From Enterobacteria phage CUS-3, in sequence record FN395002.1: DNA of 2,827 nucleotides. One strand, 5' to 3'. The notes beneath the pieces were generated by a model. That model saw only the letters and a list, made by a program, of their open reading frames with translations, ran no database searches and was not told where the DNA came from. Made by a program: the position numbers and the translations under genes. The stretch's first letter is position 1; each line of letters starts with the position of its first letter. Positions 539 to 1,762 of the stretch are shown here, piece by piece.

Positions 539-1762
539 TCTGAGCCATGTGTAAAATATTATGATGGCATTCTGTATCTGACGACCAGGGGGACATTAAG
601 TACTCAACCCGGTAGTTCATTGCACAGAAGCTCTGATTTAGGTACATCATGGAATTCTCTTCGCTTCCCAAATAATGTTCATCACTCAAACCTTCCTTTT
701 GCCAAAGTTGGCGATGAGCTGGTTATTTTTGGCAGTGAGCGCGCATTTGGTGAGTGGGAAGGAGGAGAACCTGATAACCGTTATGCAGGAAATTATCCAA
801 GAACATTTATGACCAGAGTTAACGTCAATGAGTGGAGTCTGGATAATGTAGAGTGGGTTAATGTTACTGATCAGATTTATCAGGGCGGAATAGTTAACTC
901 TGCGGTTGGTGTTGGTTCAGTTTGTATCAAAGACAACTGGCTGTACTACATTTTCGGTGGGGAAGATTTTCTAAACCCATGGAGCATAGGGGATAACAAC
1001 AGAAAATATCCTTATGTTCACGATGGTCACNNNNNNNNNNNNNNNNNNNNNNNNNNNNNNNNNNNNNNNNNNNNNNNNNNNNNNNNNNNNNNNNNNNNNN
1101 NNNNNNNNNNNNNNNNNNNNNNNNNNNNNNNNNNNNNNNNNNNNNNNNNNNNNNNNNNNNNNNNNNNNNNNNNNNNNNNNNNNNNNNNNNNNNNNNNNNN
1201 NNNNNNNNNNNNNNNNNNNNNNNNNNNNNNNNNNNNNNNNNNNNNNNNNNNNNNNNNNNNNNNNNNNNNNNNNNNNNNNNNNNNNNNNNNNNNNNNNNNN
1301 NNNNNNNNNNNNNNNNNNNNNAGCGGCGGTGAAACAACGTCTTCAGCAGATGGTGCAATGATAACGTTGCATGGTTCCGGAAGCAGTACTCCACGTCGCG
1401 CGGTATATAACGCACTCGAACATCTTTTTGAGAACGGAGATGTTAAACCTTATCTTGATAATGTAAATGCTCTTGGTGGTCCGGGAAACAGGTTCTCGAC
1501 AGTTTATCTTGGCTCCAATCCTGTGGTTACCAGTGACGGAACATTAAAGACAGAGCCGGTCTCTCCTGACGAAGCATTGCTGGATGCCTGGGGTGACGTC
1601 AGGTATATCGCTTATAAATGGCTGAACGCTGTCGCTATAAAGGGGGAAGAAGGGGCGAGGATACATCATGGTGTAATCGCGCAGCAACTTCGTGATGTTC
1701 TTATTTCTCACGGACTCATGGAAGAAGAAAGCACAACATGCCGCTATGCCTTTCTTTGCTAT
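539..1762 (+). CDS. endoN: Tailspike endo-N-acetylneuraminidase (endosialidase), partial: visible segments 539-1030 (beta-propeller region) and 1322-1762 (stalk end plus start of C-terminal chaperone domain); both termini and interior masked
   Basis: Frame 2 is open across both visible segments, and the 291-nt N-run between them is a multiple of 3. Segment 1 translates to ...YYDGILYLTTRGTLSTQPGSSLHRSSDLGTSWNSLRFPNN...SAVGVGSVCIKDNWLYYIFGGEDFLNPWSIGDNNRKYPYVHDGH with a sialidase Asp-box. Segment 2 translates to ...TLHGSGSSTPRRAVYNALEHLFENGDVKPYLDNVNALGGPGNRFSTVYLGSNPVVTSDGTLKTEPVSPDEALLDAWGDVRYIAYKW..., resembling the Peptidase_S74 intramolecular chaperone domain of endosialidases and tail fibres. 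Not in the supplied ORF track because no stop codon bounds it in the window. Confidence 0.7.
629..652 (+). other. Asp-box (BNR) motif S-x-D-x-G-x-S-W within the tailspike beta-propeller
   Basis: Codons agc tct gat tta ggt aca tca tgg give S-S-D-L-G-T-S-W, matching the sialidase Asp-box consensus S-x-D-x-G-x-(T/S)-W. Confidence 0.7.
1031..1321. other. N-run (291 nt) inside the tailspike gene
   Basis: 291 consecutive n; 97 codons, frame-preserving between the two tailspike segments. Confidence 1.
1532..1549 (+). other. Probable autoproteolytic maturation site (Ser-Lys dyad) at the start of the tailspike C-terminal intramolecular chaperone domain
   Basis: Codons agt gac gga aca tta aag give S-D-G-T-L-K, with Ser and Lys spaced i and i+5. 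This matches the catalytic Ser/Lys arrangement described for the endosialidase endoNF C-terminal domain (Ser911/Lys916), which is cleaved off after trimer folding. Confidence 0.6.

Follow-up and report, generated by a model that had tools for sequence, protein, structure and literature searches.

The 2,827-base record FN395002.1 of Enterobacteria phage CUS-3 (hereafter the window, meaning this whole stretch of DNA) carries, at positions 539-1030 and 1322-1762, two pieces of siaK1, the gene of the endosialidase tailspike of CUS-3, a P22-like temperate phage lysogenising K1-encapsulated Escherichia coli. We estimate the probability of this reading at about 96%. An earlier sequence-only reading of the same DNA had proposed an endosialidase-type tailspike from two short motifs, an Asp-box and a C-terminal chaperone-domain signature, and this motif-based call proved correct. 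The two pieces match the Pfam endosialidase propeller, stalk and chaperone domains, and every solved structure matched by the first piece is an endosialidase. The scores of the first two domains (E = 3.4e-104 for PF12217 End_beta_propel and E = 7.3e-33 for PF12219 End_tail_spike) rule out chance. Overall, this study establishes the identity of the gene, its domain content, the conservation of its key residues, its linkage to neuO and its association with K1 hosts.

The window is a deposited multi-gene genotyping record, in which a terminase gene, the two siaK1 pieces and neuO are joined by runs of N, and not a contiguous locus. The siaK1 tailspike is already known and there is no new biology in the window: descriptions of the gene, of its structure-function relationships, of the phage and of its tie to K1 strains of extraintestinal pathogenic E. 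coli have been available since 2005-2007.

The two siaK1 fragments

Fragment 1 (539-1030, + strand) and fragment 2 (1322-1762, + strand) are both stop-free, encode 164 and 147 amino acids respectively, and have two remaining forward frames that are stop-rich. They lie in one frame (1322 - 539 = 783, i.e. 261 codons) and correspond to codons 487-650 and to residues 748-894 of the 981-amino-acid endosialidase tailspike. The sequence-only reading referred to 539-1762; both motifs are indeed found in one open frame, but this span is not continuous sequence, since it includes 291 N. The comparison with the CUS-3 tailspike that it recommended gives 99.4% DNA identity between the fragments and siaK1 of the CUS-3 prophage of strain RS218.

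Fragment 1 encodes the distal part of the catalytic beta-propeller. The End_beta_propel match covers all of its 164 residues and profile positions 192-355 of 367; of the propeller, the window thus includes the distal half only. Fragment 1 shows 99.4% nucleotide identity with CP000711, the complete genome of CUS-3 of strain RS218. In PDB, it matches exclusively endosialidases, namely 4hiz and endoNF of phage K1F (1v0e, 3gvk and relatives), with E about 1e-80 and 68% identity to endoNF. The endoNF numbering used here takes residue 910, where the mature chain ends, as its anchor, with an ungapped alignment. On this basis, a Glu codon at 542-544 (residue 2 of fragment 1) is aligned with the catalytic residue E581 of endoNF, and two Arg codons at 587-589 (residue 17) and 740-742 (residue 68) are aligned with R596 and R647 (all three on the + strand), so that the Glu and both Arg are kept. 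In a deep mutational scan of K1F, E581, R596 and R647 are listed as catalytic or substrate-binding residues (PMC12632334). The same work lists H350 and R549 as further active-site residues of endoNF; their counterparts lie outside the window and are kept in the full-length CUS-3 protein (in DRHGV and GPRE). The sequence-only reading had considered that neither the N-terminal head-binding domain nor the catalytic core was fully visible. The head-binding domain is indeed located outside the window; however, since fragment 1 holds the counterparts of E581, R596 and R647, the window covers the catalytic core better than had been assumed.

The Asp-box SSDLGTSW (629-652, + strand; AGCTCTGATTTAGGTACATCATGG) is found exactly where the sequence-only reading had located it, in the open frame; the propeller has two Asp-boxes, of which this is the second. 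It fits the pattern S-x-D-x-G-x-[ST]-W with Ser replacing Thr at motif position 7, and is the sole match to this pattern in the six frames, about 0.0025 match being expected per shuffled set. Its counterpart in the alignment with endoNF is SRDIGQTW. The other Asp-box of the propeller, the first one (SGDDGKTW), corresponds to residues 259-266 of the CUS-3 protein and is outside the window.

Fragment 2 spans the end of the mature protein and the beginning of its C-terminal domain. Its first part (1322-1531, + strand; codons 748-817) encodes the end of the stalk, up to the residue at which the mature protein ends; it matches End_tail_spike at profile positions 91-160 of 160 and is aligned with the C-terminal end of mature endoNF. 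Its second part (1532-1762, + strand; codons 818-894) encodes the start of the C-terminal intramolecular chaperone, or self-cleaving domain; of the 164 residues located after the cleavage site, the window covers the first 77. The chaperone signature SDGTLK (1532-1549, + strand; AGTGACGGAACATTAAAG) had also been placed correctly, to the base. It stands at the very start of the match to PF13884 Peptidase_S74 ("Chaperone of endosialidase"; residues 71-132 of fragment 2, E = 8.1e-12), which begins exactly at its Ser, and the mature endoNF chains in PDB stop at the aligned Thr that immediately precedes this Ser. Fragment 2 matches 3gw6, a C-terminal construct of endoNF, at E = 4e-62; its residues S71 (1532-1534) and K76 (1547-1549) are aligned with positions 911 and 916 of 3gw6, which has Ala at 911. 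The Ser at 1532-1534 and the Lys at 1547-1549 are presumed to form a Ser-Lys dyad. Taken as a whole, the best solved structural matches are endoNF 1v0e/3gvk (E = 5e-80), 3gw6 (E = 4e-62) and 4hiz.

The full-length CUS-3 protein adds to these domains PF09008 Head_binding (E = 5e-66), PF12218 and PF12195 in Pfam, and its N-terminus matches the N-termini of the P22 and Sf6 tailspikes in PDB. The 981-amino-acid SiaK1 protein begins with a P22-type head-binding domain, which is followed, in order, by an N-terminal extension, a beta-propeller of six blades that houses a beta-barrel insert, a stalk and the C-terminal intramolecular chaperone. In CP000711, siaK1 is annotated with endo-alpha-sialidase activity (GO:0016996) on direct-assay evidence (PMID 16689790).

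By analogy with its family, the protein would form a trimeric spike anchored on a P22-like virion through the head-binding domain. As suggested by homology with K1F endoNF, this spike would bind the K1 capsule of alpha-2,8-polysialic acid and cleave it at the active site of the propeller, i.e. at the counterparts of E581, R596 and R647, and cleavage of the capsule would give the virion access to the cell surface. The C-terminal domain would help the trimeric stalk to fold and, as in endoNF, would then detach by self-cleavage, which would take place at the Ser of SDGTLK by means of the Ser-Lys dyad. The biochemistry of endoNF self-cleavage was reportedly worked out by Muhlenhoff in 2003, Schwarzer in 2007 and Schulz in 2010. 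Enzyme activity and self-cleavage are thus probable properties of the allele found in the window.

Host capsule and integration site

The sequence-only reading had also deduced that the host is likely a K1-encapsulated E. coli. We surveyed 5,426 complete E. coli genomes with fragment 1, neuS and the concatenation of both as queries. Fragment 1 was found in 185 genomes, neuS in 329 and either of them (concatenated query) in 330. All but one of the fragment-1-positive genomes (184 of 185) also carry neuS, compared to a background of 6% neuS-positive genomes; in this set, the endosialidase fragment is therefore a 99.5% predictor of a neuS-positive host. Conversely, the module is present in about 56% of the neuS-positive genomes, which is in the same range as the prevalence of neuO (43.5%) reported among 8,659 K1 genomes (PMC13001214). 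Furthermore, the almost identical CUS-3 record FN395001.1 (see below) originates, according to its annotation, from E. coli A285, a host of serovar K1. The deduction of a K1 host is thus borne out. As a general rule, that an endosialidase implies K1 holds for these 184 genomes and fails for one, strain 998.

Strain 998 (NZ_CM132938.1) is the sole neuS-negative strain among the 185 endosialidase-positive genomes. It carries an intact 981-codon tailspike gene (L007:3543-6488), in a prophage devoid of neuO located at ybhB/bioA. In its group-2 kps locus (L009:1-12054), kpsFEDUCS is conserved and unrelated hypothetical genes are found in region 2 in place of the neu genes. A capsule switch after lysogeny is a possible explanation.

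Four complete genomes carry all three pieces of 539-2827 with 100% identity and in one place, the tailspike gene being followed by the acyltransferase gene. One of them is that of the bloodstream isolate GN06667, in which the order is: 981-codon tailspike gene, acyltransferase gene, intS, tRNA-Arg, yfdC, mlaA and fadL. Judged by these neighbours, the prophage is integrated at argW, the integration site reported for CUS-3 (PMC9659370). GN06667 also harbors a K1 locus, kpsMT-neuDBACES-kpsSCUDEF, which includes genes encoding kpsM/T-like transporters, a neuD-type acetyltransferase, neuB, a cytidylyltransferase, neuC, a glycosyltransferase, the alpha-2,8-polysialyltransferase and the equivalents of kpsS/C/U/D/E/F. 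The capsule cluster and the argW prophage, which the sequence-only reading had proposed to look for, are therefore both present in a genome whose fragments are identical to those of the window; argW was examined in this genome, the window itself being devoid of flanking DNA. CUS-3, neuO and argW are treated in several published works (PMC3046976, PMC9659370, PMC5380687, PMC13001214). The integration site is not the same in all strains: in CE10 (O7:K1; L003:2543-6419), the siaK1-neuO module adjoins ybhB/bioA instead of argW and the integrase gene is missing. A second insertion site, pgl-bioA, and the decay of CUS-3-like prophages have already been described (PMC9659370).

Alternative explanations

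Several points weigh against the assignment of the fragments to a tailspike gene of CUS-3. The window includes 311 of the 981 codons, too few to judge whether the allele is intact, and the activity of this allele is predicted by homology. The tailspike gene of CE10 is annotated as frameshifted. CUS-3-like prophages decay often, and their tail and coat genes are pseudogenes in many isolates (PMC9659370). According to the layout of the record, its pieces are presumably separate amplicons, and the linkage of siaK1 and neuO in A285 is assumed by the depositors and not seen in the window. Finally, the module can be present in as many as 4 copies in a K1 genome, and one copy, 99.8% identical, is located on a different phage backbone.

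The first of these points, together with the frameshift in CE10 and the frequent decay of related prophages, would fit a siaK1 gene that is, in the source strain, a decayed pseudogene belonging to a cryptic prophage remnant and giving no functional tailspike. We consider this unlikely, since both fragments are open, their key residues are intact and genomes with identical fragments carry an intact 981-codon gene. Such a decay would affect the state of the gene and not its identity, and 311 codons cannot settle this state.

It could also be proposed that the fragments come from another K1 phage, either a ZX5-like prophage of the genus Uetakevirus or a lytic phage (K1F, for instance), which the same primers would have picked up in the same strain. 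Over 539-1762, the records of ZX5, 720R6 and two Phi05 are 99.8-99.7% identical to the window, slightly more than CUS-3 of RS218 (99.4%), and, in fragment 2, the window agrees with ZX5 at all three residues that differ from RS218. Furthermore, fragment 1 was found in 245 copies across the 185 genomes mentioned above, up to 4 in a single genome. Since the same cassette occurs on the ZX5 backbone, the phage backbone cannot be deduced from the endosialidase fragments alone. The assignment to CUS-3 rests on neuO, the P22-type terminase gene, the label given by the depositors and the linkage found in genomes with identical sequence. The four genomes that carry 539-2827 at 100% identity do so in one place, with the tailspike gene followed by the acyltransferase gene, and GN06667 has a tailspike gene of 981 codons with intS and tRNA-Arg downstream, as in CUS-3. 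Another K1 phage is thus a very improbable source. A lytic phage of the K1F type was rejected, endoNF being only 68% identical to fragment 1.

Lastly, a non-sialidase tail fibre or tailspike sharing an Asp-box of the generic kind and the C-terminal chaperone domain, which is widespread, had been named by the sequence-only reading as an outcome that would refute it; such a protein has almost no chance of being the right explanation, because, although Peptidase_S74 alone is unspecific (fragment 2 also matches the neck appendage protein 3gud and the tail spikes or fibres 9vvr, 7y5s and 6eu4 in PDB, as well as several PHROG tail-fibre families), it is ruled out by the match of fragment 1 to an endosialidase-specific beta-propeller (E = 3.4e-104), by PDB matches to endosialidases only (identity of 68%, all three aligned residues of the active site being kept) and by the match of the stalk part to End_tail_spike at 7e-33.

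Layout of the record, terminase gene and neuO

Among the 2,827 bases, four pieces are readable (1-438, 539-1030, 1322-1762 and 2180-2827), and between them lie runs of 100, 291 and 417 N. A megablast search of phage records retrieved 17 records with a length of exactly 2,827 bases; all are named Enterobacteria phage CUS-3 and share this four-piece layout. The best match among them, FN395001.1 (CUS-3 genotype GT_17), has the same pieces, N runs and length as the window; it is annotated as a terminase small subunit gene (1-438), a partial siaK1 (539-1030 and 1322-1762) and neuO (2180-2827). Judging by the strain names, the series of records to which it belongs is probably that of Mordhorst et al. 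2009, a paper cited in PMC3046976; none of the papers searched in full text mentions the FN accession numbers. None of the phage records searched matched the window without a difference. The window is not identical to FN395001.1, as one base differs: position 590 is A in FN395001.1 and G in the window, so that codon 590-592 (in the context TTRGT) encodes Arg in the former and Gly in the latter. This codon directly follows the Arg aligned with R596 of endoNF. Since the Gly is common to CUS-3 of RS218, ZX5 and endoNF, the A of FN395001.1 might stem from an error in sequencing or represent a rare variant.

The pieces were mapped on CP000711, to which both siaK1 pieces and neuO are 99.3-99.4% identical and the terminase piece 98.6% identical. 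The terminase piece corresponds to 22705-22268 and the start of siaK1 fragment 1 to 4013. The N spacer at 439-538 is therefore an arbitrary joiner of 100 N between separately sequenced pieces and replaces 18,254 bp of the phage genome; hence, pieces that are adjacent in the window should not be taken as gene neighbours. More generally, N runs in such records may conceal tens of kilobases, and adjoining pieces are no proof of neighbourhood. The two other runs differ from this spacer in having a true length, both matching exactly the distances in CP000711 and both being multiples of three. In the extracted CP000711 locus (L002), the siaK1 fragments occupy 4001-4492 and 4784-5224 and are separated by 291 bases; the gap at 1031-1321 (291 N) thus stands for 97 unsequenced siaK1 codons and preserves the frame. 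The gap at 1763-2179 (417 N), whose length is true as far as the ATG of neuO, corresponds to 5225-5641 of the same locus, in which siaK1 ends at 5488 and the neuO ATG is at 5642. It covers the last 87 codons of siaK1 and its stop codon (to about position 2026 of the window), followed by an intergenic region of 153 nucleotides. This run is exactly as long as the stretch that separates fragment 2 from the neuO ATG in CP000711: the siaK1-neuO spacing of CUS-3 is thus respected, the linkage being asserted by the record.

The first piece (1-438, + strand) is the terminase small subunit gene of CUS-3, with all its 146 codons and without its stop codon. It is 98.6% identical to ECRS218_0022 of CP000711 and matches PHROG 309 (terminase small subunit, E = 2e-68), and no Pfam match was found at E <= 0.01. 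Its DNA is also 96-99% identical to genes of Klebsiella phage phiKp_30 and Escherichia phage N7, indicating that this packaging module is common well beyond K1 phages.

The last piece (2180-2827, + strand) is neuO, encoding the polysialic acid O-acetyltransferase of CUS-3; it includes 216 codons and no stop codon in the window, shows a Hexapep match (E = 4e-11) and is 99.4% identical to CP000711. It begins with ATGTCGTTTTCC, where CP000711 reads ATGT(TAAGACT)19CGTTTTCC. At the junction, ATGT is directly followed by CGTTTTCC in the window, meaning that the 5′ (AAGACTC)n tract, present in 19 copies in CP000711, has been edited out. This heptanucleotide tract makes neuO phase-variable (PMC3046976). 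As this contingency repeat has been removed, the on/off state of neuO cannot be read from the window. The idea that the window is one contiguous locus was rejected, terminase and siaK1 being 18,254 bp apart in CUS-3 and the neuO repeats having been edited out.

Comparison with known endosialidase phages

The closest characterized relative of the gene found in the window is siaK1 of the CUS-3 prophage of RS218 (CP000711, ABQ88383.1; Stummeyer et al. 2006), which is the same gene, spaced in the same way and likewise followed by neuO. Over the 311 codons present in the window, the two alleles differ by four substitutions, one in fragment 1 (I548V) and three in fragment 2 (R767G, I807T and T832A; CUS-3 numbering).

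K1F endoNF (1v0e, 3gvk, 3gw6) has the same architecture of propeller, stalk and chaperone as the gene found in the window, and both have in common the residues E581, R596 and R647, the Asp-box and the Ser911/Lys916 site. They differ in their attachment to the virion: K1F has a T7-type N-terminal attachment domain, whereas CUS-3 has a P22-type head-binding domain (PMC5380687), the latter type being confirmed in CUS-3 by Pfam. Furthermore, K1F is lytic and devoid of neuO, unlike CUS-3. The two phages thus carry a common catalytic module on different N-terminal adaptors (PMC5380687).

The tail fibre of ZX5 (vB_EcoP_ZX5, Uetakevirus, QTH80017.1) shows 95% amino acid identity over 847 residues spanning the catalytic, stalk and chaperone domains, and its gene 99.8% nucleotide identity with the siaK1 fragments of the window. 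In contrast, the ZX5 gene (L004:2366-5485) and the matching prophage gene of the avian pathogenic E. coli (APEC) strain E18055 (L008:4366-7485), which holds the same cassette, encode an unrelated N-terminus of about 190 amino acids. Both belong to a different temperate backbone, of the Uetakevirus type, with holin and endolysin genes (a lysis cassette) downstream instead of neuO, and the E18055 prophage adjoins yfgI, a chromosomal site other than that of CUS-3.

A near-identical cassette (at least 99% nucleotide identity over the fragments of the window) is found in several prophage settings: (i) CUS-3 at argW, (ii) CUS-3-like at pgl-bioA and (iii) a prophage of the Uetakevirus type next to yfgI. 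That K1 phages exchange modules is, in principle, an established fact (Stummeyer 2006, summarised in PMC5380687). As a tentative extension, of which we are doubtful, this distribution might reflect a very recent exchange of the cassette between unrelated temperate phages, combined with prophages that outlive a capsule switch, as may be the case in strain 998.

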